From NCBI GenBank assembly GCA_023802575.1, contig GCA_023802575.1_3947.1: a stretch of 64,000 nucleotides of DNA; one strand, given 5' to 3'. Source of the stretch: a phage. The notes below the pieces were generated by a model. It did no database searches, was not told where the DNA came from, and was given only the letters and a program-made list of their open reading frames with translations. The translations under genes and the position numbers were made by a program. The first letter of the stretch is position 1. Every line of letters starts with the position of its first letter. Of this stretch, positions 15,230 through 27,695 are shown one piece after another.

Positions 15230-16340
15230 AATTTATATTTTTTATAAAATTTATCGGTTGTTCCAACCTCTGGGTCACCATGATATGTGAACAAAGTATC
15301 TAACCTTCTTAACAGCCTTCTTAATCTTACTCTCTATATAGTTATATAGTACTATATAGTATCTTAGTAACTATCTAGTGGTCTTAATAGCCATCTGTAT
15401 AGCCCTTCTAAATAGCCCTCTAAACACTCTTCTAACAAGCCTTCTTAACAACCTATACAATCACCTTAACCATCTCTCTATACCCTCTTAGAAGCTCCTA
15501 TACACCTCTTAATCTCTATGTCAGCTATGTTACCCTCTATAGGTGTTCACTAGGTATTACTAAGCCTCTATATAGACTGTTTTAACAAACTTAACAGGAA
15601 TGTCTTCACAGACCTTATCTCACAAGGTCTAACACGGCACTAACAAGGTATCTTATAAGCCTGTTTCTACCTGTATTTTTAAAAGACTGTATAGGTAATT
15701 ATTCAGATTTTTAAAATTTTTATAAAATAGGACTATCAAGTCATTTTTTAGGGTCTTTGAAGGAACTGAAAAATATCTGTAGAAGATGTATATCTGCTTG
15801 GTAGCCCTTAACATCCCTGTAACATCCCCTTTGCAAAATTTTAAAATATCCTTAACAATCTCTTAACAGTTCTCACATCTTCTTAACATCTCTTCAAAGG
15901 TCTTAACAGATTCTTAACAGAACTAACAAGGGCTTAACAGTTTCTTAACAGTCGATACATGGTCTTTATAGTCTCTTAACAGATGACTAACAAGAGCTAA
16001 CAAGTTAATTTTTAAGAGTTATTTTGTTAAGATAATTAACAAGTTCCTAACGAGTGTCTAATCTTTTTAACAAGCTATTAACATGGTCACTACTCTTCTC
16101 TTATCGTTCCCTTTCCTTTCTTAGTGATTCTTTAAACATACCTCTTAAAAGCTCTCTATAGCTCCTTGTAAGCTCTTTTAAGCCTCTCCCTAGTAATTAC
16201 ACCCCAACTGTACAGATACCTCTTTATAGGGCTTTACAGGGGCTTTAAAGGCTATGCCAAAGGTTCTTACAAGGCTTTTACGTGGTTTTAACAGAGATTT
16301 AACAAGGGGCTAACAAGTTGCTAACAAGTGCCTTAAAAGC
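15230..16340. repeat. ORF-free region densely packed with CTTAACAG / CTAACAAG short motifs (phased array densest at ~15850-16085)
   Basis: ~30 copies of (C)TTAACA(G)/CTAACAAG with 10-13 bp spacing; no ORF >=60 aa in any frame across 15177-16821. Confidence 0.7.
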
Positions 16341-16394
16341 ATAACTATGTAGGATTTGTTAAGAAATTGTTAAGAAAATGTTAAGGGGGCTAGC

Positions 16395-16447
16395 ATTTAC
16401 GTAACTTTATAGCCCCTTTTACGTAACTTTAAAGCCCCTATAACATA
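16395..16447. repeat. tandem direct repeat TACGTAACTTTA(T/A)AGCCCC x2
   Basis: two adjacent copies ~26 bp apart. Confidence 0.5.
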
Positions 16448-16872
16448 CTTTTTAGTGACTATCAAGAGGTTGTTTAGTTATTCACAAGAATACTAATGAG
16501 ATGATAAAGCTTACACCCTTATAAGATTCTTTTAAGCCTCTATAAAGCCCTGTAAAGAGCTTTTTAAGGCTGGTTAATGCAATCCCTTAAGTTAGGTTGA
16601 TAAGGCTGATATAGAGCTTTATAGAGCGTTTAAACGGTTGCCCTTCCCTTTCGGGTTATAGGCTTATATTTAAGTTGATTTGATAAAAGGTTATAGAGTA
16701 AACTATAGAGTTATTGCTTTTTAAGGTATGAGATAGATTCTATCGAATTAGTGGGATAGATTCTAGGAAGGAAAGGGAAAGGGTTGTATAGAGGCTATTA
16801 CATAGACGTAAAAAAGCCCCTATGAGAAGGAGCTTTTCAGGTATCTGGGGCTATTTAGCCCCGCTGCGTCGA

Positions 16873-17121
16873 TTAGTTATAATCTTGCTTGTTGTAGTAC
16901 AGGGAGACAATTTTTTCTCCCCAGTAGTGGTAGTGATATTCCTCGTTTATGGCTTCTTTTACAGCGTCCTTCCAAAAGTCATCGGTAGGGTTATAATCTG
17001 GTAGCACCTGCTGAATCAGCATTTTGATAAGGTCAAAGGTGTTATTTGTTCCACCGATATCGAATTTTGCATCAAGTTCGTGGCAGCCATAAGCATTAAC
17101 AGTTACGCGGATAGTTGACAT
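16873..17121 (-). CDS. hypothetical protein (82 aa)
   Basis: six-frame ORF; GGAGA SD upstream; small-gene cluster. Confidence 0.5.
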   Translation of the reverse strand: MSTIRVTVNAYGCHELDAKFDIGGTNNTFDLIKMLIQQVLPDYNPTDDFWKDAVKEAINEEYHYHYWGEKIVSLYYNKQDYN

Positions 17122-17189
17122 AATTTAGATTCTCCAGTTTAGGACTTTGTTTAGTGGGGAAGGTCATTCCCTCCCCGTTGATTAGTAAT
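17122..17189 (-). promoter_or_regulatory. conserved intergenic cassette type B (GGGGAGG..CCTTCCCC hairpin, conserved leader, SD GGAG)
   Basis: shares CAACGGGGAGGGAATGACCTTCCCCACTAAA..AAGTCCTAAACTGGAGA with 5 other intergenic copies. Confidence 0.6.
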
Positions 17190-17453
17190 TTACTGCATAT
17201 TGGCGTATGTTGCAAGCCTTTTTTCGTTGTATTTTGTAAGAATCTCACAAGACAAAACATCGTACTTTGTAACAGCGTTGCCTTTGTCGAGGTCAAAGAA
17301 TCCAAATGCTTTACCATCTTTGAATCCGACAACTTCGTAAGATTCTTTGATGATTTCACCATTGAATAAATCGCTTTCGATACGGTGAAACAGTGCTACA
17401 TCTTCTTTGTCAGTTGCAATCTGCAATAGTGTGGTTAATTCTACGTTTTCCAT
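17190..17453 (-). CDS. hypothetical protein (87 aa)
   Basis: six-frame ORF; cassette upstream. Confidence 0.5.
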   Translation of the reverse strand: MENVELTTLLQIATDKEDVALFHRIESDLFNGEIIKESYEVVGFKDGKAFGFFDLDKGNAVTKYDVLSCEILTKYNEKRLATYANMQ

Positions 17454-17519
17454 CTTGATAACCCCTAGTTTAAGGACTTTATTTAGTGGGGAAGTGATTT
17501 CTTCCCCTTGATAGACACT
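17454..17519 (-). promoter_or_regulatory. conserved intergenic cassette type B (variant)
   Basis: GGGGAAGAAATCACTTCCCC hairpin plus shared leader. Confidence 0.5.
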
Positions 17520-18047
17520 TTAAAGATTTGATAACGTTTCGTCAAGTGCATTTTCTAAATTTTTTAAAGATTTTTCGTAAAGCTTGATTAAATCTGTTAA
17601 TGCCTTGCCTAACGTTACTTTAAAGATATCTGTTTTGTATTCACTTGTAAACAGTTTTTCAACTTCATAGATTGGGTGTTGTTGATTGCCTGTACCAGTA
17701 GCAGACACGCCAGTGTAGAAAATTGCAATAAAAAGGTTATGAGACTTTATAGAGCGTTCATAAGCCATTTTGTATTGGTTTAGCTCGTTTTTAGTCGCCT
17801 TGATAGCCATTTCGTGAATTTCTGCGACGATAGCCATATAATCCGGCAGGATAACCGCTACGGCCTTCATAAAGTTGTTAGCTGTTATCATTTGCTGATT
17901 TGGGCGATGTATGTAATATTTCTTATCTTCCCCTTTCGTGATAACTGCAAAAGTTTTATCTTTCAGGGTAAATTCGAAAGTATCCTTGACAGGCTTTTTC
18001 ATTACGTCTTTTGAGCGAATAGTGTTGATTGCTGTGAACTTATTCAT
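17520..18047 (-). CDS. hypothetical protein (175 aa)
   Basis: six-frame ORF; GGAGA upstream. Confidence 0.55.
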   Translation of the reverse strand: MNKFTAINTIRSKDVMKKPVKDTFEFTLKDKTFAVITKGEDKKYYIHRPNQQMITANNFMKAVAVILPDYMAIVAEIHEMAIKATKNELNQYKMAYERSIKSHNLFIAIFYTGVSATGTGNQQHPIYEVEKLFTSEYKTDIFKVTLGKALTDLIKLYEKSLKNLENALDETLSNL

Positions 18048-18247
18048 CTTGATTTCTCCAGTTTAGGAAGTTGTTTTGCTTGATAGGTACTATAGGGCTT
18101 TTAGAAAGTGATTGCAAGCAATTTTTTAAGTTTATCTATAAAGAATCTTTTAAGTGAATCCCTTTTAGATAAACCCCCTCGAACAAAGTTACCAATGTCA
18201 AGAGGGATTGTCAACATTTTTTTTAAAAGTTTTTTGTAAGTTATTGA

Positions 18248-18589
18248 TTAACTGATGAATATTTTTTCAGGTTTTACATAGCTGATACGCTGATTTTTTA
18301 GCAGGCTATCCCATAACAAGGCGGCAATGTGCCCATATCCGGCCTCACGCAGACCCTTCATCGTTTCAACTCGACTCTCAAAACGATTTGCGTAATACTC
18401 GCTATTAAGTGTCGTTTTGTTTCCTTCGTTATCTGTATGGATGATTTGCATCACTTGAAAGGGGCTGACATCCTCGCCTTTGTTCCACTGCTCAAAGTAT
18501 TTTAGGCACTGCATAGGCGACATCTTATCACTGACTTGAGTTGACCAAGATGAATTTTCTTTATTGGTAATTACAGTTACATAAGCCAT
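18248..18589 (-). CDS. hypothetical protein (113 aa)
   Basis: six-frame ORF; cassette type A upstream. Confidence 0.55.
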   Translation of the reverse strand: MAYVTVITNKENSSWSTQVSDKMSPMQCLKYFEQWNKGEDVSPFQVMQIIHTDNEGNKTTLNSEYYANRFESRVETMKGLREAGYGHIAALLWDSLLKNQRISYVKPEKIFIS

Positions 18590-18675
18590 TTTAGAATCTC
18601 CAGTTTAGGATTTAGTGGTAAAGCTCTTTATCTGGGGCTTAAGATACCAACTTTTAAGCCCCCTGTAAAGTACTT
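18590..18675 (-). promoter_or_regulatory. conserved intergenic cassette type A (GGGGCTTA..TAAGCCCC hairpin, AGATAAAGAGCTTTACCACTAAATCCTAAACTGGAGATTC leader)
   Basis: near-identical copies at 19875, 21003, 22302, 22648 and a variant at 20209. Confidence 0.6.
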
Positions 18676-18924
18676 TTAAGCGTCTTTGTATTCGATTTCT
18701 ATACACTCACCTTTTACTAGCTCAAAAGTCCACAGTAAGCGTTTATATTCAATAACTATTACAGTGATAAAGTCAGTTCTTTTTTCATTAGTTTTGAAAT
18801 CTATTGTGTGAGTATACTCATAACTAGACTTATCCATGATTTTTCCATAGCGTCTACATTCTTTGTAGACTTCATCCATTAAACCATTGTTAACCATGCT
18901 TTTAAGTTGCGTTTTAGTATACAT
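18676..18924 (-). CDS. hypothetical protein (~82 aa)
   Basis: ORF 18676..18990 with start moved to ATG at 18924 downstream of cassette SD; the 5' extension translates the cassette. Confidence 0.5.
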   Translation of the reverse strand: MYTKTQLKSMVNNGLMDEVYKECRRYGKIMDKSSYEYTHTIDFKTNEKRTDFITVIVIEYKRLLWTFELVKGECIEIEYKDA

Positions 18925-19014
18925 TTTAGAATCTCCTAGTTTAAGGACTTTATTTAGTGGGAAGGTCATTCCCTCCCCGTTGATTGACACTATATAGACT
19001 TTAATCAGGCTTGT
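18925..19014 (-). promoter_or_regulatory. conserved intergenic cassette type B
   Basis: sequence match to other type B copies. Confidence 0.55.
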
Positions 19015-19248
19015 CTAGTCTTTTTCAATGAGAATCTCATATTGACCGTCCACGCTGTCAAAATAGATGCCGTCTTCATCTTCTGTCTTAAAGTAGCATT
19101 GAATGTCATCACTGGCGGGATAGTCTTGTCTTGCTATCTGGCAAACTTGAATAGCATTTTCTTTACTTCCTGTAAACTCCTCAAGCCCTTTAAAATCACA
19201 TGAATGACCGTTACAAATGGAAAGGATGAGATAAATGGTTGTAAGCAT
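19015..19248 (-). CDS. small secreted protein candidate (77 aa) with N-terminal signal-like segment
   Basis: hydrophobic N-terminus MLTTIYLILSICNGHSC; four Cys; AGAGGG SD. Confidence 0.45.
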   Translation of the reverse strand: MLTTIYLILSICNGHSCDFKGLEEFTGSKENAIQVCQIARQDYPASDDIQCYFKTEDEDGIYFDSVDGQYEILIEKD

Positions 19249-19316
19249 GGTTTAAGCCCTCTAAATGGCCCTGTACGGGCCTTAAGTTGGAAGTTGGTGT
19301 CTTTGTACTGATTAAC

Positions 19317-19874
19317 CTAAAAGTCTTTTAAATTGCGTTCTGTGATGTTTGCCGTGATTTTATCCAGCAGGTCACAAAACACAGAACTATCACCGCTATT
19401 CTGTACAATTTTCGCCATACTTAACAAATCATCGTCAACATAGCCTAAATTGCGGTTAGTTGCATCTGGTACAAAGAAAGGCGCATACATTGCACTAAAT
19501 TTCGTCGAGTGAAGGCCAATAATCCAATCTTTATCAAAGTGTCCGGTAAAGCTGGCGATATCACTCATGTTGTCACAAGAATAATCATCCTCTAGCTCTT
19601 CCTCTGGGATATCCATCTCAATGACAATTACGTCCTGCGTTTCCATTTGGAAAGCTGCCGTAATAAGCCCAGATTCTAAAGCGTTTTGAATGCATCGTTC
19701 ACGAATGTAAGAATCTTCCTCATCTTCCAGACATTCCGTTTTGATAACCTTGTTCATTGGGTAAACGTAGAAACAATCATCCATGTAGGAGCAGTTCCAG
19801 ATTCCTTCCGGCTTGTCGCCACCATTCAGTAAGTTTACAAAGTTTTTCAGAGTAGTGCCGTGATAGCATTTCAT
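19317..19874 (-). CDS. PARP-like (H-Y-E type) ADP-ribosyltransferase domain candidate (185 aa)
   Basis: N-terminal YHGTTLKNFVNLLNGG aligns residue-for-residue with the PARP catalytic motif WHGSRTTNFAGILSQG; aromatic-rich segment and acidic VIVIE follow. Confidence 0.5.
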   Translation of the reverse strand: MKCYHGTTLKNFVNLLNGGDKPEGIWNCSYMDDCFYVYPMNKVIKTECLEDEEDSYIRERCIQNALESGLITAAFQMETQDVIVIEMDIPEEELEDDYSCDNMSDIASFTGHFDKDWIIGLHSTKFSAMYAPFFVPDATNRNLGYVDDDLLSMAKIVQNSGDSSVFCDLLDKITANITERNLKDF

Positions 19875-19959
19875 TTTTGAATCTCCAGTTTAGGATTTAG
19901 TGGTAAAGTTCTTTATCTGGGGCTTACTTTATCGAACTATAAACCCCTTGTAAAGTACT
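19875..19959 (-). promoter_or_regulatory. conserved intergenic cassette type A
   Basis: sequence match. Confidence 0.6.
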
Positions 19960-20208
19960 TTATTTAACTTTTTTGAGAAAAATTAGTTTAACTGCAACTG
20001 TAGGAATCTCGTCAGCGGTTGTAACCAGCATTACTTTTTGAGTGACCAACTTATAACCGTTCTTTGCAGCGTATGCGGTAAAACGGTTGACATTGTAACT
20101 ATAAGTTTTTGGTGTGTTGTCTGGCATGTGGTAAAGAAAAGGTTTACCCAAGTTTTCTTCTTGTGTCAATAGTCGGCAGGTATCAGGGATATTGAAATAG
20201 TTCATCAT
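19960..20208 (-). CDS. hypothetical protein (82 aa)
   Basis: six-frame ORF; GGAG SD. Confidence 0.5.
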   Translation of the reverse strand: MMNYFNIPDTCRLLTQEENLGKPFLYHMPDNTPKTYSYNVNRFTAYAAKNGYKLVTQKVMLVTTADEIPTVAVKLIFLKKVK

Positions 20209-20299
20209 TTTTTAATCTCCTAGTTTAAGGACTGTGTAAAGCTCTTTATCTGGGGCTTAAGATACCAACTTTTAAGCCCCTTGTAAAGTACTTTATTAC
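20209..20299 (-). promoter_or_regulatory. conserved intergenic cassette (type A hairpin, hybrid leader)
   Basis: GGGGCTTAA..TTAAGCCCC hairpin plus AGATAAAGAGCTTTACAC. Confidence 0.5.
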
Positions 20300-20497
20300 T
20301 TAATTTTTGACAACTTTTAAAACTGCAAGATAACCTAAGCAATAAGAATCCCCGAAGAGAGTTCTACCCATGAAAGAATCCTCTTTGATATCCTTTGCAG
20401 TGACAGTTTTTTCTACGCCGTGGGAAAGGACTACATCACCAACTTTGATATCTTTGATGTGTGTTGTTTCAATGGTTAAGCCGTTAATAATAGCCAT
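20300..20497 (-). CDS. hypothetical protein (65 aa)
   Basis: six-frame ORF; cassette upstream. Confidence 0.45.
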   Translation of the reverse strand: MAIINGLTIETTHIKDIKVGDVVLSHGVEKTVTAKDIKEDSFMGRTLFGDSYCLGYLAVLKVVKN

Positions 20498-20597
20498 TTT
20501 AGAATCTCCTAGTTTAAGGACTTTATTTAGTAGGGAGGTTATTGCCTCCCCGTTGATGAGTAATTTAATCTATCTAAAAATCAGTGTCAACATCTTT
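20498..20597 (-). promoter_or_regulatory. conserved intergenic cassette type B
   Basis: sequence match. Confidence 0.55.
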
Positions 20598-21002
20598 TTA
20601 AAGTTCTGCGTAGATTGCATCACAGACATCACGGAAATCATGATTTGTTAAGTTACGTTGTAACCAAGTGGCAAAGAAATCAGCGATTGCAAAATTAGCG
20701 TCATACTCGACGGATAGCCACACTTTAACAGCAAATCGGAACATCTTTAAATCAAGCTCTTTATTCATTACCTTTGATTTGCCTAACATGTCGGCCATCT
20801 CATGTTGTGCACCGTCTAGCGTGATACCGGCTGCAACGTCAGCCAATGAGTTTTTTACGCTTTCAACGTCTAAGATAATACTTTGAATCTTCCCAATAAT
20901 GTTTTGCAATGTTTCATCTGGTGCTGATGATGTGATAACATTAATCCGGTTGACGGTCAAACGTGCTTTTAAGATAGATAACTCACGATTATTAATAGCC
21001 AT
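20598..21002 (-). CDS. hypothetical protein (134 aa)
   Basis: six-frame ORF. Confidence 0.55.
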   Translation of the reverse strand: MAINNRELSILKARLTVNRINVITSSAPDETLQNIIGKIQSIILDVESVKNSLADVAAGITLDGAQHEMADMLGKSKVMNKELDLKMFRFAVKVWLSVEYDANFAIADFFATWLQRNLTNHDFRDVCDAIYAEL

Positions 21003-21087
21003 TTTTGAATCTCCAATTTAGGATTTAGTGGTAAAGCTCTTTATCTGGGGCTTACTTTATCGAACTATAAGCCCCTTGTAAAGTACT
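21003..21087 (-). promoter_or_regulatory. conserved intergenic cassette type A
   Basis: sequence match. Confidence 0.6.
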
Positions 21088-21360
21088 TTATGCTAAATGC
21101 AGCTTTTTGCCTTTTACTATGATGTAACTTGATGCGCTATTGCCGCATACATCTTGATAAATTCTACGCAAACGGCCTTCGTAGTATACTTTCCAGCTAG
21201 TTGGAATCTTTTTCCCGTATCCGGTAGCAGTTTTTTGGAATCCTGCAAGTTGCCAATCCAAAATGTGCTGTTCAGCTTGTAAATCCTCGAAGTGCATTAC
21301 ACCGTTTACATAGTGGCGTAGGGTTACGTTTAAGGTGCGACCGTTGTTAGTAGTGTACAT
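21088..21360 (-). CDS. hypothetical protein (90 aa)
   Basis: six-frame ORF. Confidence 0.5.
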   Translation of the reverse strand: MYTTNNGRTLNVTLRHYVNGVMHFEDLQAEQHILDWQLAGFQKTATGYGKKIPTSWKVYYEGRLRRIYQDVCGNSASSYIIVKGKKLHLA

Positions 21361-21450
21361 TTTAGAATCTCCTAGTTTAAGGACTTTACTTAGTGGGGAA
21401 GGTCATTCCCTCCCCGTTGATTAGTAATTTACTTGTTTTTAAAACTAAAA
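21361..21450 (-). promoter_or_regulatory. conserved intergenic cassette type B
   Basis: sequence match. Confidence 0.55.
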
Positions 21451-21783
21451 TCAAGAGAAATTTTTTCGTTTGTTCAGTTCTTGGACAATTACAGTGTAAT
21501 AGTCTTTTAAGTCACTGATATTTAAAGCATTTATCAGAGAGTTATAATCATCGACTAATTGAAAATCATCTTTGAAAATGTCACTGATTTGATAAGTTCT
21601 TGCCCTGAATCTGAAACTCATCTCTAACCGTTTTAATTGTTCATCACTTAAACGCTCTAGAAAGCTCATTACAAGACTATTACTAACCTGTTGTGTGATT
21701 GCCTTACTTGCCAGATTATAGGCGCTATAAGCCTTATAGAGCGCCAGAATAGCGATGATTGCAGTTATGGCCATCATTAACAT
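21451..21783 (-). CDS. hypothetical membrane-anchored protein (110 aa)
   Basis: N-terminal hydrophobic helix; six-frame ORF. Confidence 0.5.
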   Translation of the reverse strand: MLMMAITAIIAILALYKAYSAYNLASKAITQQVSNSLVMSFLERLSDEQLKRLEMSFRFRARTYQISDIFKDDFQLVDDYNSLINALNISDLKDYYTVIVQELNKRKNFS

Positions 21784-22073
21784 GGTGCTTCCTCTTTACG
21801 TGACACTTTGCCATTTACAGTTATCTCATAAGAATCTAGTAAATCGCTTTTAGCTTTGACAGGACTTTTAAGAGTATCATCATAGATATTAACTTGCAAT
21901 ACAGGTTTTTTATACCCCATGCAACTATTCCATAAGCAAATCACTACACGACGACCTTTTATTTTACCGTGTAACCATTCCATAACATCATGGCTGTTTC
22001 TTGATGTTTCAATGAAATCAATTTTGTTGAGTAACTTGCTTAGATTTTCACGAACTTTATTTGATAATTTCAT
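21777..22073 (-). CDS. hypothetical protein (98 aa)
   Basis: six-frame ORF; 7-nt overlap with downstream gene. Confidence 0.5.
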   Translation of the reverse strand: MKLSNKVRENLSKLLNKIDFIETSRNSHDVMEWLHGKIKGRRVVICLWNSCMGYKKPVLQVNIYDDTLKSPVKAKSDLLDSYEITVNGKVSRKEEAPC

Positions 22074-22088
22074 TTTTGAATCTCCAGT

Positions 22089-22301
22089 TTAGGATAAAAT
22101 AGTAATCGTAAAATTGTAATGACCATTAAGCTGATAAGCATAACAGTTAGAGAATACACCAACTAACCGAGGTTTTCCATAAATTTTCATGCGCTCTTTA
22201 ATCTCTTTGAGAGATTTCAAACCTGTAAGGTCTTTATTGAAATAGTCATCATCTGTGAACAGGACTTGTGAGGCGGTTTTCAGTTTTTGATTAATGTTCA
22301 T
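22089..22301 (-). CDS. hypothetical protein (70 aa)
   Basis: six-frame ORF. Confidence 0.45.
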   Translation of the reverse strand: MNINQKLKTASQVLFTDDDYFNKDLTGLKSLKEIKERMKIYGKPRLVGVFSNCYAYQLNGHYNFTITILS

Positions 22302-22389
22302 TTTTGAATCTCCAGTTTAGGATTTAGTGGTAAAGCTCTTTATCTGGGGCTTAAGGTATCAGCTTTTAAGCCCCCTGTAAAGTACTTTA
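22302..22389 (-). promoter_or_regulatory. conserved intergenic cassette type A
   Basis: sequence match. Confidence 0.6.
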
Positions 22390-22647
22390 TCAGATTAAAT
22401 TGCCAGTTAATGATAAGTGCATTTTATAGCCTTTTTTGGTAAAGACGTTCACTTTACCGAGTGATTTTACACCTTTAAAAAGGTTGTTTGAACTGCGTTT
22501 TAAGGTTAGTTGTTTATCAACCTTCACGCCCCACCTTACAGCAGATTGTTTTCCGTTGTCAACCACTTTCCCGCATAACTTTTTAGCCATGATACGAGCG
22601 TCATCACGAGTTTTTACAGTAATTACAACGTTTTTGATAATAGCCAT
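22390..22647 (-). CDS. hypothetical protein (~85 aa)
   Basis: ORF 22390..22662 with start moved to ATG at 22647 (cassette SD spacing). Confidence 0.45.
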   Translation of the reverse strand: MAIIKNVVITVKTRDDARIMAKKLCGKVVDNGKQSAVRWGVKVDKQLTLKRSSNNLFKGVKSLGKVNVFTKKGYKMHLSLTGNLI

Positions 22648-22733
22648 TTTTAAGTTCTCCAATTTAGGATTTAGTGGTAAAGTTCTTTATCTGGGGCTTA
22701 CTTTATCGGACTATAAGCCCCTTGTAAAGTACT
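22648..22733 (-). promoter_or_regulatory. conserved intergenic cassette type A
   Basis: sequence match. Confidence 0.6.
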
Positions 22734-23117
22734 TTATTTGTTAATTTTGAAGATAGTTACGTAACCATCACTACCGATTATTTGAGACGCTCCAGCTTTT
22801 TCTACTTGATAGCCCATATTTTCAAGATGATAAATAGCATCATCGTAACCGTATGCGCCACCCTGATAACGTCTCTTGTCACATCTTATCAGGTTTTTTC
22901 CACGTCCTGCAAGTGCATGGAGAATGGATTTTTCACTTGAAAGAGTACCATCTAGCATTGTAGCTGTGTAATGGTTGATTTTATTCCCGTTGATATCGTA
23001 CTTGAAATTAAATGAGTGAACAACAATAACGTTACCTTTAAAATTCTCATCAAGTGACTTCTCCAGTGCGTTGCGAAAGTTGTCTTTGTTCACGAATTTA
23101 GGTGCACGGTATGCCAT
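22734..23117 (-). CDS. hypothetical protein (127 aa)
   Basis: six-frame ORF; cassette type B upstream. Confidence 0.55.
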   Translation of the reverse strand: MAYRAPKFVNKDNFRNALEKSLDENFKGNVIVVHSFNFKYDINGNKINHYTATMLDGTLSSEKSILHALAGRGKNLIRCDKRRYQGGAYGYDDAIYHLENMGYQVEKAGASQIIGSDGYVTIFKINK

Positions 23118-23185
23118 TTTTGAATCTCCAGTTTAGGACTTTGTTTAGTGGGGAAGGTCATTCCCTCCCCGTTGATGCAAATACT
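23118..23185 (-). promoter_or_regulatory. conserved intergenic cassette type B
   Basis: sequence match. Confidence 0.55.
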
Positions 23186-23330
23186 AGATAACCACGTTCA
23201 AAGAGTCAAGAAAAATTTTAAAAATATTTTTGGCAAAACTGTAATGAAACGGGCGCACACGACTACCACAAAACAGAACACAAATCAAGAATTATTTTTC
23301 AATCCGCTACAAATTTTTCTCTTGACTTTT

Positions 23331-23365
23331 GGGGAGAGGGGGAGTAAGAGGGGGAGAGGGGTTGG
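23331..23365. repeat. purine-rich GA tract (GGGGAGAGGGGGAGTAAGAGGGGGAGAGGGG)
   Basis: low-complexity G/A run in intergenic region. Confidence 0.6.
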
Positions 23366-23385
23366 TCTGGCTGTTTATAAAAACC

Positions 23386-23566
23386 TACCTGCACAATTCT
23401 AAAATGATTTTTCTTGCCCGACCTGAGCGGGGTCTGCACGTTTTGAAAATGAAAAAGCTCTTTGGAGATTACCTGCACAGTTTGAAAATGAATTTTCCCT
23501 TTGGAGTTCAAAATTCTCTCCACAGATTTCTGTCCAGACTTTTACCTGCACAATTCTGAAATGAAA
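23386..23566. repeat. three direct repeats of ~21 bp ACCTGCACA(A/G)TT(C/T)(T/G)(A/G)AAATGA
   Basis: copies at ~23386, ~23470 and ~23546 in ORF-free region upstream (minus sense) of the small-gene cluster. Confidence 0.6.
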
Positions 23567-23637
23567 AAGCCCCCCTTACCTGAAAAATTTACCAGATAAG
23601 AAAGGCTTAGTCTATTGTGTATATTCTACACAGTTTC

Positions 23638-24423
23638 TTAGTTCTTTGCGTCTAAGAAGGTAACTTCTGGTGATGAGAAGATTGCCTTAACATTCTCATC
23701 AGTTCTCGCATAAATGTAAGCATCTGCATCACTACCGAATGTCACAGCAATACGATTATTGCTCTTTGACAGGCGGGTAACTAGAGCGTTACTTAGAGAC
23801 ATCTTTTCAACCGGAGGGTTACTTTGATGTATCTTACCCTTTCTACGTCTGAAGAGGGTAACTGCATTATCTGTGAACACTGCTATACCTGCAAAATATT
23901 CTGGTTCACAATAGTTCTTCCAACCTGAGCGTAACTTGTGGTACATCTCACCTTCATAGACATATAAGTAAACGTCTACGCTTTTCATTACCTGATTGAT
24001 GATAACGGTGACAGCTTGATGGTCAAGTCCACCGATACCTGCACCAATCATAGGTAAACCAACTTTCTTCAACTGATTAACTTCGCAGTACCTGTTAAGT
24101 TTCTTCAAAGATGACTCTAAAGCACTGTATCTGGCATCTTTACCAGTTTTAAGCTGAGTGTAGAGGTTAGCTATACGGCCTTGTTCTAAACGTGCTACAG
24201 AGATATTACCTAGTAAATCCTCACAGGGTTTATGTCCAATGCCACCTGCGTACAAGTAAACTTCTGTGTCAGTTTCATAGGCTTTTGGGTAAAGTTTAGA
24301 AATCTTGTCAGCAATACCTGCACCCATTAAGTTCATACAGTTGCAACCGTGTCCAATGACATCAAACTTGCCTTTATCAAAAGCATTAAAGATATCACCA
24401 TTGATGATTTTTACAATACCCAT
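23638..24423 (-). CDS. macrodomain protein, TARG1/OARD1-like ADP-ribose processing fold, with ~100-aa C-terminal extension (261 aa)
   Basis: GDIF...GHGCNCMNLMGAGIA and LPMIGAGIGGLD match the TARG1 motifs GDLF...AHCISEDCRMGAGIA and MPRIGCGLDRL. Confidence 0.75.
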   Translation of the reverse strand: MGIVKIINGDIFNAFDKGKFDVIGHGCNCMNLMGAGIADKISKLYPKAYETDTEVYLYAGGIGHKPCEDLLGNISVARLEQGRIANLYTQLKTGKDARYSALESSLKKLNRYCEVNQLKKVGLPMIGAGIGGLDHQAVTVIINQVMKSVDVYLYVYEGEMYHKLRSGWKNYCEPEYFAGIAVFTDNAVTLFRRRKGKIHQSNPPVEKMSLSNALVTRLSKSNNRIAVTFGSDADAYIYARTDENVKAIFSSPEVTFLDAKN

Positions 24424-26477: not shown

Positions 26478-27169
26478 TGTTTAACTAACATAGTTTTAAT
26501 GTGTGGAAGGATTCTGTTTACCTTCTGAACATTATTCTCTGTATCTTCTATAAAGCATACTATATTAAAGTAAGGAAGAATGCAAGACTGAATCATCCTC
26601 ACTTTCAAACTTTCTGCACTTATAGAGTTAGTTCCAAAACCACGCATAAAAAGCAAGTAATCATGCTCTATATTGTGCCTTAAAAACATCTCAGTAGGTA
26701 TTCTCTGAGATTCACCTCTTGCTGTCAAGAGTCCAACTGCTGCATGATTTGCAATTGCATCAATAATGTTGAAAACATATGTTGGTTTTGCTCTTACAGA
26801 ATCAAGAAGATTAGTGTACTGTGAGAATGACCCATCAGTCAATTCCGTTGAGCAATCTTCGTGATTAAAATTTGTAAGAACGCCATCAATATCTGCTAAG
26901 ATGAGGTTACCTTTTTCTACAAGGTCTTTATTGACTATGACTAAACTATCACGCCTTACACCTATAGTTTGTCCAGTCTCTTTGTCCACAACGCTCACAA
27001 TTGGTTCTGATGTATGGAACTCTTCAAGTGAACATACAACTTCTCTTGCAGTATCTTCAAAATCCCTGCACTGTTCTGGAGTCCATACACAGGAATCAAG
27101 ACCTAACTCATGAGGGTGCAAGTCATAAGCATGGCACAGTACTTCATCAGACTTTCTTAATTTTTTCAT
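26474..27169 (-). CDS. HAD-superfamily phosphatase-like protein (231 aa)
   Basis: motif I-like LADIDGVLT; later GLLTAR; weak call. Confidence 0.4.
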   Translation of the reverse strand: MKKLRKSDEVLCHAYDLHPHELGLDSCVWTPEQCRDFEDTAREVVCSLEEFHTSEPIVSVVDKETGQTIGVRRDSLVIVNKDLVEKGNLILADIDGVLTNFNHEDCSTELTDGSFSQYTNLLDSVRAKPTYVFNIIDAIANHAAVGLLTARGESQRIPTEMFLRHNIEHDYLLFMRGFGTNSISAESLKVRMIQSCILPYFNIVCFIEDTENNVQKVNRILPHIKTMLVKH

Positions 27170-27695
27170 GGTTTACCTTAGAAATGTTTGTTGCAAATTC
27201 ACATTGAGCAATCACTTTCATATTGTTATAGACATCTTGAGAATATTTCTTAGCTTTAGGGATTTTGTACGAATACCCAGCATTATATGATGCTAAAACT
27301 TTTTGTAAAGTCTTCTTTGACTTTGGCTGACCATGCACCTTTGTCCAAAACTCAAGTTCTTTGTGAGTTTCCTTCGCAGCATAATCAAAGTCTCTTAAGA
27401 GTTTCTTTTTAGCCACATTAGGGCTAATTTTGTTACGCTTTACAACAGTCTTCAAGTGATTCTGGAAAATACCATAATCATGTGTCTTTTTATTCTCTAC
27501 CTTCAGACCTAACTCTGACTCTTGTAAGGCTATAGCAGCTAGAGTGATACCCCAACCTTTGCCCATGTTATTCTCACCATACTGGTAAGCTTTTAACATG
27601 TTTACTTTTTGGCTAATTGATAGCTCTGGGCAGTCAACTGCATAAGATAAGTGTGCTGTAAACATTAAGCACAAACCTAGAATCAATTCCTTCAT
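27147..27695 (-). CDS. secreted lytic transglycosylase-like protein (SLT domain) with signal peptide (182 aa)
   Basis: signal peptide; SLT-type motifs QESELG, GIFQ, SYNAGYS. Confidence 0.55.
   Translation of the reverse strand: MKELILGLCLMFTAHLSYAVDCPELSISQKVNMLKAYQYGENNMGKGWGITLAAIALQESELGLKVENKKTHDYGIFQNHLKTVVKRNKISPNVAKKKLLRDFDYAAKETHKELEFWTKVHGQPKSKKTLQKVLASYNAGYSYKIPKAKKYSQDVYNNMKVIAQCEFATNISKVNHEKIKKV

Follow-up and report, generated by a model that had tools for sequence, protein, structure and literature searches.

The locus and its cassettes

The window analysed here, a stretch of 64,000 nucleotides of phage DNA, belongs to a Felixounavirus, and between 17.1 and 23.2 kb its minus strand carries an array of small genes that is the counterpart of Felix O1 genes 14–23. 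As the initial annotation had proposed, two conserved cassette families stand before these small minus-strand genes, six copies of type A and six of type B (Table 1). The type A pattern (33 specified bases) was matched 6 times in the window against 0.00 expected from 100 shuffles, and the type B pattern, at up to 3 mismatches, 3 times against 0.00; neither motif was found elsewhere in the 64-kb window, or anywhere on its plus strand. A full cassette precedes 12 of the 16 array genes, in the order B A A (leader only) (coupled) B A B A A (other hairpin) B A (promoter without hairpin) B B, so that the two types, first described as alternating, do so only loosely. The cassettes are also longer than the 65-90 nt first given (about 90–105 nt), because the upstream promoter belongs to them.

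Table 1. Features of the cassette array, in descending order of coordinates
Feature	Position	Strand	Promoter (-35, spacer, -10)	Predicted +1	Hairpin	Leader and remarks	ATG
Type B cassette 1	23115..23217	-	A/T-rich upstream region, TTGACT-N17-TAGTAT	23173	GGGGAGGG-AATGA-CCTTCCCC	leader, SD GGAG	23117
Type A cassette 1	22648..22737	-	CTTTACA-N17-TAAAGT, -10 in loop and 3' arm	22692 (AGATAAAG)	upper stem GGGGCTTA/TAAGCCCC, 22693-22721	upstream stop TAA; leader	22647
Type A cassette 2	22300..22391	-	TTTACA-N17-TACCTT, TG-extended -10	22345	stem GGGGCTTAA/TTAAGCCCC		22301
Leader-only copy	22071..22104	-	none		none	TCCTAAACTGGAGATTCAAAAATG; before gene 21777-22073	
Type B cassette 2	21358..21462	-	TTGATT-N17-TAAATT	21418	GGGGAGGG/CCTTCCCC		21360
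Type A cassette 3	21001..21092	-	TTTACA-N17-TAAAGT	21046			21002
Type B cassette 3	20495..20598	-	TTGACA-N17-TAAATT	20554	GGGGAGG-CAATAA-CCTCCCT		20497
Type A cassette 4 (chimera)	20209..20296	-	type A, TTTACA-N17-TG-TATCTT	20251	type A	leader tail of type B style, GTCCTTAAACTAGGAG	20208
Type A cassette 5	19873..19963	-	TTTACA-N17-TAAAGT	19918	stem GGGGTTTA/TAAGCCCC with U.G pair		19874
Type B cassette 4	18922..19024	-	TAGACA-N17-TATAGT	18981	GGGAGGG/CCTTCCC		18924
Type A cassette 6	18588..18676	-	TTTACA-N17-TG-TATCTT	18633			18589
Hairpin-less type B relative	18045..18125	-	A-tract, TTGCAA-N17-TATAGT		none	short leader CTTCCTAAACTGGAG	18047
Type B cassette 5	17451..17553	-	TTGACG-N17-TAAAGT	17509	variant, GGGGAAG-AAATCA-CTTCCCC	SD GGGG	17453
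Type B cassette 6	17119..17223	-	TTGCAA-N17-TAAATT	17179	GGGGAGGG/CCTTCCCC		17121
Array end	16811..16862	-	no promoter loop		degenerate type A upper stem (GGGGCTAAATAGCCCC + AGATAC)		
Probable U-tract terminator	within 16811..16862	-			AGCTCCT..AGGGGCTTTTTT	after the degenerate type A stem	

The array is bounded on either side by true U-tract terminators, at 23567-23608 and about 16811-16835, which suggests that it forms one read-through domain; for Felix O1, a terminator t23 (gcccctatttaaaggggctttttt) is listed behind the counterpart of the array. The description of the genes as probable early or host-takeover genes holds only in part, since transcript timing in Felix O1 is mixed, with ORFs 13, 16, 20, 21 and 22 detected by RT-PCR at 5 min (early) and ORFs 14, 17, 19 and 23 at 25 min (middle) (PMC3185647), and since all ten proteins scanned belong to PHROG families of unknown function. 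The warning that the cassettes mislead ORF callers was justified: plus-strand ORFs 17154..17369 and 23148..23402 are mechanical ORFs starting inside the reverse complement of a cassette, and the 5' extensions 18676..18990 (GTG) and 22390..22662 (TTG) reach into cassettes.

A predicted sigma-70 promoter in both types

Judged from the bases that are kept, the dominant conserved signal in both cassette types is a putative sigma-70 promoter, which the initial annotation had overlooked, composed of a -35 element, a 17-nt spacer and TAnnnT, often with TGn, and in type B also an A-tract. The type B copies all share the A-tract, TTGACA or TTGCAA, N17, one of TAAATT, TAAAGT, TAGTAT and TATAGT, and ATCAAC, and the type A promoter reads CTTTACA, N17–18, TAnnnT. 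Among 84 unique type A cores from four Ounavirinae genera, TAnnnT is kept in 83, at a distance from TTTACA of 17 nt in 74 cores and 18 nt in 9; it occurs as 15 different hexamers, TGn is found in 48 cores, and the TA at -12/-11 never varies among 73 aligned unique copies, although the loop that holds it is variable. Of the 6 type A sites, a consensus promoter scan recovered 5 (TTTACA-17-TAAAGT/TATCTT), along with several of type B, and an independent annotator had marked type B as promoter plus hairpin in the record of phage ASO1B. The -10 hexamers match TATAAT at 3-5 of 6 positions only, and a generic promoter scan of the region shows weak enrichment (43 sites against 32.4 +/- 5.3 expected). 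No mapped transcript 5' or 3' ends for any Ounavirinae phage were found in the literature searched, and the Felix O1 paper states that the organisation of transcription is not known (PMC3185647); promoter activity and start sites are given here as predictions.

It seems very doubtful that the cassettes act purely post-transcriptionally within one long polycistronic early transcript devoid of internal promoters, as they had been viewed before. The conserved leader and hairpins, the position of all genes on one strand between two U-tract terminators and the use of the leader alone by one gene (22071-22104) would suit such a transcript, which nevertheless leaves unexplained the invariant CTTTACA at a fixed distance of 17-18 nt from TAnnnT, the invariant loop TA within 15 different hexamers and the frequent TGn, as well as the block of A-tract, -35, N17 and -10 lying 5' of every type B hairpin. 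This block is even kept where the hairpin is absent (18045-18125), in a form that also precedes the same gene family in Suspvirus and Mooglevirus loci. Since the sigma-70 promoter is the dominant signal, we regard the cassettes as primarily transcription-initiation modules, rather than post-transcriptional elements alone, while the shared SD leader and conserved hairpins of the previous description stand.

That leader indeed ends both types, in two sub-variants (CC-TAAACT-GGAG and CCT-TAAACT-AGGAG); it is A/U-rich, with GGAG 8 nt before the ATG, and 3' of the predicted type A start it is predicted to be unstructured (-2.7 kcal/mol, z 0.12). The unstructured leader and the covariation within the conserved hairpins make it plausible that the cassettes help to standardise translation initiation and act in RNA stability or processing.

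The type A hairpin

In type A the promoter spacer and the -10 element lie inside the hairpin, with the -35 on the 5' side of the GC stem and the -10 in the loop and 3' arm. Owing to this nesting, the hairpin RNA would exist only in read-through transcripts; the gene's own transcripts, predicted to start downstream of the hairpin, could not carry it in their leader. The read-through RNA is predicted to fold into a 68-nt three-helix hairpin, the same in all six window copies (-19.3 to -22.9 kcal/mol, z -2.7 to -6.2), in which a 1x1 mismatch separates the lower helix (5-7 bp) from the middle one (5 bp), a 3x3 internal loop separates the middle helix from the upper one (8-9 bp), and a loop of 11-13 nt caps the whole, amounting to about 24 stacked positions or roughly two helical turns.

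Comparison with related phages, proposed earlier as a check, finds both TAnnnT and hairpin covariation kept across four Ounavirinae genera. The stem changes from GGGG/CCCC to GGTG/CACC; in the upper stem 97.5% of the cells are paired, a value reached by 0 of 500 shuffles, and nine Erwinia-phage copies carry a GC-to-UA compensation. The lower and middle helices are 96.8% paired, against 94.8% when shuffled and 30-65% when slid, and their pair a4-b11 is GC in 115 copies, UA in 14, unpaired in 7 and G.U in 1, counts that overstate the number of independent events because the copies derive from one another through duplication or gene conversion. Over 139 copies the hairpin energy is equal on the two strands (-22.41 and -22.40 kcal/mol), so that energy alone cannot distinguish selection on RNA from selection on a DNA palindrome.

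Such a DNA palindrome could be an operator, with a phage-encoded dimeric regulator binding two TAAAG-NN-CTTTA boxes and switching the type A promoters off or on. Each box is near-palindromic and strongly conserved in four genera, the boxes (over the -35 and at +3 to +14) bracket the promoter core, and the equal folding of both strands is what a DNA-level site would give; moreover, according to a recent preprint, terminator palindromes can double as transcription-factor sites (10.64898/2026.08.19.745784). We nonetheless consider an operator highly improbable, for in 14 unique copies a change of TAAAG to TAAAT in box 1 is matched by CTTTA to ATTTA in box 2, complementary changes that lose the palindrome within the box and keep the two boxes able to pair; furthermore, no candidate regulator was identified and the type B stems vary freely in sequence.

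The same fold would also suit a processing site for host RNase III of the type found among T7 early genes, with the promoter nested inside it. If the enzyme cut within the 3x3 internal loop, a protective hairpin would remain at the 3' end of the upstream mRNA, and the downstream mRNA would gain a 5' end (AGAUAAAG) nearly the same as that of promoter-initiated transcripts. The stacked length and internal loop, the GC-to-UA and UG/CG/UA changes in the lower helix, the position between early cistrons directly after a stop codon and a general resemblance to T7 R1.1-type sites are in keeping with such cleavage, which would refine the promoter module rather than replace it. We judge it unlikely, given lower helices that are short and A/U-rich, the lack of a match to any Rfam family, an antisense strand that folds equally well, and a 3' arm that may owe its conservation to being the promoter's initial transcribed sequence.

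The type B hairpin and the question of termination

Across some 80 unique type B leaders, the stem begins between +3 and +5 relative to the predicted start, and its sequence depends on the genus (GGGGAGGG/CCTTCCCC, GGGC/GCCC, GGGGC/GCCCC or GGGA/TCCC); thus the position of the hairpin is conserved and its sequence is not.

Neither hairpin is followed by a U-tract or listed by the terminator scan, in agreement with the earlier statement that they are not ordinary terminators. They might still act as terminators or attenuators insulating each gene from upstream transcription, the role given by the authors of the T4-type promoter-early stem-loops (PeSLs) to their own elements, one of which lowered the expression of a lacZ gene placed downstream by as much as rrnB T1 did (PMC2839356); the stems are rich in GC, at -12 to -16 kcal/mol, and in the ASO1B record the type B hairpin is entered as a terminator on the strength of a WebGeSTer call. 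Against this, the sequence runs on as AGAUAAAG or ACUAAAUAAAG where a U-tract would stand, the terminators at both flanks suggest a single read-through domain, and an efficient terminator in type B, lying downstream of its own start, would also abort the cassette's own transcript. On balance, insulation by termination appears rather doubtful, and with no U-tract on either hairpin the terminator role of that one PeSL may not apply.

Spread and gene shuffling

Database records with these cassettes come from Ounavirinae only (289 phage records for type A, 247 for type B); multi-copy matches in IMG/VR lie only on contigs of 53-94 kb, nearly all of 81-94 kb, and no cassettes were found in E. coli genomes. 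No relative matches at least 80% of the 6.9-kb region in one piece. In gene-order strings among relatives, the gene together with its cassette is the unit of insertion and deletion, and one gene family has type A in front in one phage and type B in another. Ends of homology blocks lie within 25 nt of a cassette in 47 of 56 cases, against a background of 31.6%, and the window itself holds a chimeric A/B cassette (20209-20296). Most likely, then, the cassettes mark sites of gene swapping between related phages, a link missed in the initial annotation. Intergenic mosaic boundaries are expected under any gene-wise shuffling, and the cassettes are not thereby proven to be its cause.

A proposed one-gene expression module

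Taken together, we propose, with a probability of roughly 0.68, that each cassette is a one-gene expression module of the PeSL kind, combining a sigma-70 promoter, a GC stem-loop and a standard leader, and that it serves at the same time as a homology patch for gene exchange. Host sigma-70 RNA polymerase would read the cassette promoter. In type B, transcription would start at an A about 8 nt past the -10 element, and the first part transcribed would be the GC hairpin of 4-8 bp (about +4 to +24), placing a stem-loop at the 5' terminus of the mRNA, a geometry that protects E. coli mRNAs from 5'-end-dependent decay. In type A, the cassette's own transcripts would start directly 3' of the hairpin, at AGAUAAAG, and the hairpin RNA would form only on transcripts begun farther upstream, immediately behind the stop codon of the preceding gene, where it would most likely define or protect the 3' end of the upstream message through attenuation or nuclease processing. 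Being 90-105 nt long and repeated many times in one orientation, the cassettes could act as homology patches through which gene-plus-cassette units would be gained, lost and exchanged among Ounavirinae.

Comparison with known systems

The E. coli ompA 5' UTR hairpin is a 5'-terminal stabilising stem-loop, and the type B hairpin, predicted to lie 2-4 nt from the mRNA 5' end, would be comparable; its constant position and variable sequence are as expected for a protective role of structure only. Unlike the ompA hairpin, it has a predicted start site and is part of a repeated mobile cassette. T7 carries RNase III processing sites R0.3-R1.3 in the spacers of its early genes. Like them, the type A elements recur as conserved, irregular hairpins that span about two helical turns and contain an internal loop; they occupy the spacers in an early polycistronic region that host RNA polymerase transcribes, and the upstream message would keep a 3' hairpin; the sequences are unrelated, however, the T7 sites have no promoter, and the lower helices are weak here.

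In bacterial promoter-coupled terminators, the stem-loop DNA supplies the -35 and the T-tract the spacer, with termination 8-11 bp before the start site (Fletcher et al. 2026 preprint, 10.64898/2026.08.19.745784). What is shared is one DNA stretch serving as the stem-loop for upstream transcription and as the promoter of the next tandem unit, which couples neighbours, and what differs is that in type A the -35 lies 5' of the GC stem and the -10 in the loop and 3' arm, without a T-tract.

The cassettes match the PeSLs, described in the T4-like phages RB49/phi1, T4/PST and KVP40/nt-1 (Arbiol et al. 2010, PMC2839356; Comeau et al. 2014, PMC4122927), a resemblance in anatomy that had also escaped the initial annotation. 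A PeSL is defined by an upstream stop codon, an AT-rich region, a sigma-70 promoter, a polyG/polyC stem-loop and an SD, with the stem-loop between -35 and -10, overlapping -10 or downstream of -10, and PeSLs accompany small ORFans in hyperplastic regions (PMC2839356). Our cassettes present the same succession of stop codon, A/T-rich stretch, sigma-70-type -35/-10, polyG/polyC stem-loop with G.T pairs, SD and ATG; type A would correspond to the first two positions and type B approximately to the third. They likewise occur in many copies, in one orientation, before small genes without a known function, within a mosaic region where insertions and deletions between relatives end at cassettes. They differ in belonging to another subfamily (Ounavirinae, about 88 kb), in having no detectable sequence similarity to PeSLs (blastn matches in Ounavirinae only) and in forming two tightly conserved sequence families, where the PeSLs form five loose positional subclasses. 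In addition, the type A palindrome spans the -35 and the first 15 transcribed bases, giving the three-helix hairpin, the type B hairpin follows the predicted start site instead of preceding it, and the U-tract is absent.

Within the Ounavirinae, the Felix O1 paper lists a 57-bp repeat, CTTTACATGGGGCTTAAAAGTCTGTAAAGTAAGCCCCAGATAAAGAGCTTTACCACT, and a 39-bp repeat, TTGACACTGGTTTTTAGATAGATTAAATTACACATCAAC, that match these cassettes (PMC3185647), and the wV8 GenBank record lists them as DR_1 to DR_9. Those annotators had identical sequences before them as direct repeats only, and what is added here is their reading as promoters, as structures and as sites of gene shuffling.

An array of small genes with two cassette families

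Sixteen small genes stand in a row on the minus strand of the window (16.8–23.7 kb). A U-tract terminator (23567–23608) closes the row on one side, and a second, probable one lies on the other side at about 16811–16835. Repeat finding resolved two families of cassettes in this array, with six members each, and a shared leader of 39 nt present in eight copies; the 12 cassette copies fall within 6.1 kb. Degenerate patterns gave six matches for type A and three for type B, against 0.00 expected in shuffles, and the cassette motifs were found neither elsewhere in the 64-kb window nor on the plus strand. These comparisons bear out the sequence description of the initial annotation, namely two repeated families occupying 12 spacers, each cassette ending in the same Shine-Dalgarno (SD) leader, GGAG-N8-ATG. 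The two families had also been called alternating, which holds only loosely, and the cassettes, although present where described, are longer than had been proposed.

Table. Elements preceding the small genes of the array.
Element	Copies	Position in the window	Strand	Remark
Type A cassette	6	before ATGs 22647, 22301, 21002, 20208, 19874, 18589	minus
Type B cassette	6	before ATGs 23117, 21360, 20497, 18924, 17453, 17121	minus
Leader-only gene	1	leader 22071–22104	minus	without promoter/hairpin cassette
Hairpin-less gene	1	18045–18125	minus	promoter and leader
Further array gene	1			via ATGA-type overlap
Further array gene	1			via unrelated hairpin

The gene order of the region (rIIA, rIIB, polynucleotide kinase, spanins, a macro-domain protein at 23638–24423, terminator, array, terminator and a 1.7-kb gene-free stretch) places the array at Felix O1 genes 14–23. 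In Felix O1, RT-PCR signals peaked at 5 min for ORFs 13, 16, 20, 21, and 22 and at 25 min for ORFs 14, 17, 19, and 23 (PMC3185647). All ten array proteins tested belong to PHROG families of unknown function. The region matched 259 phage records, from Felix O1-group phages of Escherichia, Salmonella, Shigella, and Citrobacter, and in none of these was at least 80% of it covered by a single colinear piece.

Several features of the surroundings were observed as well. The minus strand carries 24 tRNA genes (195–5203), in keeping with a Felix O1-like phage. Three to four direct-repeat copies of about 28 nt (23386–23580, plus strand TACCTGCACAnTTnnnAAATGA) fall in the 0.45 kb without genes that separates the terminator at 23567–23608 from the first type B promoter; they could be regulator binding sites or another class of promoter. 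Beyond the other end of the array, the 1.7-kb gene-free region is dense in CTTAACA/TAACAAG repeats (about 15300–16640), some of them 31 nt apart (15837–16014) and with inverted copies at 16344–16384; it resembles an iteron/origin-like or packaging-related region.

Predicted promoters within both cassette types

The initial annotation had overlooked a putative sigma-70 promoter in both types, and this changes their interpretation. Nine annotated relatives, belonging to Felixounavirus, Suspvirus, Mooglevirus, and the Erwinia-phage genus Kolesnikvirus, supplied homologous arrays for comparison, and the sample also included 60 IMG/VR stretches. Every type B copy consists of an A-tract, TTGACA, TTGCAA or TAGACA, a spacer of exactly 17 nt, TAAATT, TAAAGT, TAGTAT or TATAGT, then N3-ATC, A-A-C, and the hairpin. 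Every type A copy runs from the stop codon of the upstream gene through AAAG-TA-CTTTACA, 17 nt, TAAAGT, TATCTT or TACCTT, and AAGCCCC to AGATAAAG, the stop codon lying in or directly before a conserved (A/T)AAAG box, a few nucleotides ahead of the -35. A consensus promoter scan independently listed all but one of the six type A sites, along with several of type B. Among 84 unique type A cores, TAnnnT is kept in 83, its distance from TTTACA being 17 nt in 74 of them and 18 nt in 9, even as the -10 element takes the form of 15 different hexamers, and TGn stands at the extended -10 position in 48. Within an otherwise variable hairpin loop, T and A at -12/-11 are invariant in the 73 aligned unique cores, which is the conservation pattern of a -10 element and not of a loop. 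Read from their sequence, the cassettes are first of all predicted transcription start modules; we put the probability that type B is a promoter at about 0.9, and type A is probably a promoter, too.

One promoter class, TTGCAA-N17-TATAGT, was never accompanied by a hairpin. In the spacer ahead of the hairpin-less promoter (18130–18245) we observed at least one extra promoter-like site, TTGACA-N17-TAACTT, and a palindrome containing GAGGGGG; in the ASO1B record, the equivalent spacer ahead of the homologous gene is annotated with a promoter and a predicted terminator.

Two other promoter readings were considered for type A. A T4-type middle promoter, suggested by TGCTTTA, a possible MotA box, upstream of type A in three genera, was rejected: the same place reads TACTTTA in Felixounavirus and the motif lies 19 nt from the -10 where about 12 would be expected; that Felix O1 reportedly lacks MotA/AsiA-like factors (PMC3185647) counts against it as well. 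A second promoter in the type A leader was dismissed on inspection, the spacer from CTTTACC to TAAACT being only 9 nt.

A conserved hairpin over the predicted type A promoter

[quoted passage not shown] Its pairing holds in 97.5% of cells, a value reached by 0 of 500 shuffles, and sliding the partner reduces it to 17–62%; all Erwinia-phage type A copies carry the compensated change GGTG/CACC, and the fifth pair is C-G, U.G or U-A. When 12–18 nt of flanking sequence are included, the six window copies all share one longer predicted fold (-19.3 to -22.9 kcal/mol, z -2.7 to -6.2). It is built from a lower helix (5–7 bp), a 1x1 mismatch, a 5-bp middle helix that pairs CUUUA with UAAAG, an internal loop of 3x3, the upper helix, and a loop of 11–13 nt. 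Pairing in the lower and middle helices amounts to 96.8% over 138 unique type A copies, compared with 94.8% in shuffles, of which 0 of 500 equal the real figure, and with 30–65% after sliding. At one position in the lower helix the pair is G-C in 115 copies, U-A in 14, unpaired in 7, and G.U in 1, counts which do not represent independent events because the copies are related by duplication and probably by gene conversion.

Each TAAAG-NN-CTTTA box could alternatively be half of a pair of protein operators, given its internal symmetry. The switch from G-C to U-A breaks precisely that symmetry while preserving the complementarity from box to box, and thus favours a hairpin. Whether RNA or DNA is the selected form is another matter: the U.G pairs looked sense-specific, but strand asymmetry had to be given up as proof of an RNA function, the folding energies being equal (-22.41 kcal/mol sense, -22.40 antisense), so that the sequence accords equally with a selected RNA and a selected DNA palindrome.

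The predicted type A start is the A of AGATAAAG, 8 nt past the -10 and just 3' of the upper stem; therefore, the hairpin would form only in RNA arriving from upstream. In such read-through RNA it begins at the upstream stop codon. Folding of the leader that follows the predicted start shows no structure (-2.7 kcal/mol, z 0.12). Where the array ends (16847–16862) we observed a degenerate type A upper stem, GGGGCTAAATAGCCCC plus AGATAC, lacking the promoter-bearing loop and followed by the probable U-tract terminator, which indicates that the hairpin is able to persist without a promoter.

A positional hairpin in type B, and the shared leader

In type B the stem GGGGAGGG/CCTTCCCC lies just downstream of the promoter, after the predicted start, its first pair falling at +3 to +5 in about 80 unique leaders (with the start deduced from the position of the -10). 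By lineage the stem reads GGGGAGGG/CCTTCCCC, GGGAGG/CCTCCC, GGGGAAG/CTTCCCC, GGGGC/GCCCC, GGGC/GCCC or GGGA/TCCC, and the loop sequence likewise differs. A conserved position combined with a free sequence points to a putative structure-only role. A stem-loop a few nucleotides from the 5' end is the classic protection from 5'-end-dependent decay in E. coli. An antitermination hairpin of the boxB or put kind would need a sequence-specific partner, against which the free variation of stem and loop between genera argues. The mini-ORF ATGACCTTCCCCACTAAATAA within the hairpin is attributed to chance, since variants do not conserve it.

In all leaders a block of 3–4 pyrimidines upstream complements the SD (for example at 22305–22322), as UCC/GGA or UCCU/AGGA and, in Erwinia phages, as CCUU/AAGG or CCUC/GAGG, which suggests a weak anti-SD mini-hairpin of about -2.7 kcal/mol. 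The two Felixounavirus leader variants are perfectly linked in about 390 copies; the sites are 6 nt apart, and linkage alone could explain this. The leader-only copy (TCCTAAACTGGAGATTCAAAAATG) directly follows the stop codon of a 70-aa ORF for which none of the nine annotated relatives compared has a homologue, and it looks like the trace of a gene inserted with the leader alone as homology.

Possible roles in RNA processing

Neither hairpin is directly followed by a U-tract, as had been noticed at the outset: AGATAAAG (type A) or ACTAAATAAAG (type B) stands there instead, and the terminator scan lists neither. This argues against classic intrinsic termination by the cassette stem-loops. No Rfam family was found for the cassettes, either at the gathering threshold or at E-values up to 1. 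The predicted three-helix fold of type A has the right overall size for an RNase III site, but its lower helices are 5–7 A/U-rich pairs; its architecture recalls the RNase III sites between T7 early genes. Cleavage of the invariant GGAG by a T4 RegB-type enzyme was rejected. The sole relative protein bearing that annotation, the "RegB endoribonuclease" of Erwinia phage Panisse (1048–1560 of the Panisse locus), has a signal-peptide-like N-terminus and is homologous (46% identity) to the product of window 27147–27695, which has only a weak SLT transglycosylase hit and looks like a secreted SLT-type protein; the RegB annotation is probably wrong. No RegB endoribonuclease was identified in the window.

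That the hairpins would act at the RNA level in the ways set out here has, in our judgment, an even chance. Far more speculative, and on balance improbable, is the full scheme in which type A would be a sigma-70 promoter written inside an RNA processing hairpin and, together with type B, would form a portable gene socket. Under that scheme, endonuclease cleavage within the 68 nt of type A would end the upstream mRNA and leave it a protective 3' hairpin, the downstream mRNA would begin at essentially one nucleotide, through initiation or cleavage, and type B would contribute a 5' protective hairpin. Each array gene would then give a uniform monocistronic message wherever transcription had begun. 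If true, such a "plug-and-play" socket would allow Ounavirinae to insert any foreign small gene and have it expressed correctly at once.

Probable exchange of genes at the cassettes

Encoding each array as a string of gene families and cassettes showed that ten phages have a common backbone and that what distinguishes them are units made up of a single gene with a single cassette. The unit g18[A], for example (gene family 18 with a type A cassette), occurs in the window and in ASO1B but is missing from wV8, FO1a, and Moogle, and g35[A], g29[A], g14[A], and g24[B] show presence and absence of the same kind; g7, g9, g18, g19, and g25 are preceded by type A in some phages and by type B in others. 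When the window was compared with seven relatives by blastn, 47 of 56 ends of homology blocks lay within 25 nt of a cassette, as against 31.6% of array positions. The window contains a chimera at 20209–20296, with a type A head and a type B leader tail, and the two leader sub-variants assort independently of hairpin type, as recombination within cassettes would bring about. However, selection for intact genes would by itself also place boundaries between genes. We consider it likely that the cassettes are preferred crossover sites.

Distribution and comparison with known systems

The cassettes are conserved across a phage subfamily, and we regard the finding as real and biologically meaningful. 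The conservation check proposed at the outset showed them kept in four Ounavirinae genera; 289 Ounavirinae records contain type A (29 Erwinia phages among them) and 247 contain type B. A host origin was discarded, since none of 5,426 complete E. coli genomes matched the cassette. As sequences, the cassettes had been recorded before. Under the name "direct repeats", the Felix O1 paper gives the core of type A (57 bp) and the promoter of type B (39 bp), and it calls the organisation of transcription unknown (PMC3185647); the wV8 record annotates cassette sequences as DR_1–DR_9, which the wV8 paper does not mention, and the ASO1B record marks type B as a promoter plus a predicted hairpin terminator. 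Our literature search found no Ounavirinae transcriptome or mapped start sites, and no paper applying the concept of the promoter-early stem-loop (PeSL) cassettes of T4-like phages to the Felix O1-like group.

The present reading yields predicted early promoters and start sites for phages used in Salmonella typing and biocontrol, corrects gene starts, identifies spurious ORFs, and explains where the mosaic boundaries of the array region lie. Additionally, it offers compact, apparently host-independent expression parts as candidates for phage engineering.

One DNA stretch serving both termination and initiation is also the subject of a 2026 preprint on bacterial promoter-coupled terminators (10.64898/2026.08.19.745784); the concept is the one considered here, but the geometry differs from that of the cassettes. 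The closer parallel is the PeSL, which combines a stop codon set in A/T-rich sequence with a sigma-70 early promoter, a polyG/polyC stem-loop that includes G.T pairs, an SD, and an ATG. Its stem-loop lies between the -35 and -10, over either of them, upstream or just downstream of the promoter (PMC2839356). PeSLs cluster among ORFans in hyperplastic regions and bound indels between close relatives, and their promoter activity, terminator activity, and mini-circle formation have been experimentally demonstrated (PMC2839356; PMC4122927). At the sequence level the cassettes agree with them in five respects: a sigma-70-type -35/~17 nt/-10 with an A/T-rich upstream region; a polyG/polyC stem-loop in or beside the promoter, whose pairing in the cassettes is conserved and covarying; an upstream stop codon (type A copies) and an SD before the ATG; numerous copies concentrated in a hyperplastic region, among small genes whose function is unknown; and indels or replacements between Ounavirinae relatives bounded by cassettes. 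They share no sequence similarity with T4-like phages, all matches being in Ounavirinae. The cassettes are best read as a PeSL-like system of promoter, stem-loop, and leader that comes in two sequence families. If this is true, such composite cassettes are not peculiar to T4-like phages, since an unrelated Felix O1-like subfamily (four genera) has families of its own with a like anatomy, and they would represent a recurrent solution, in large lytic phages, for early-gene regions that evolve fast.
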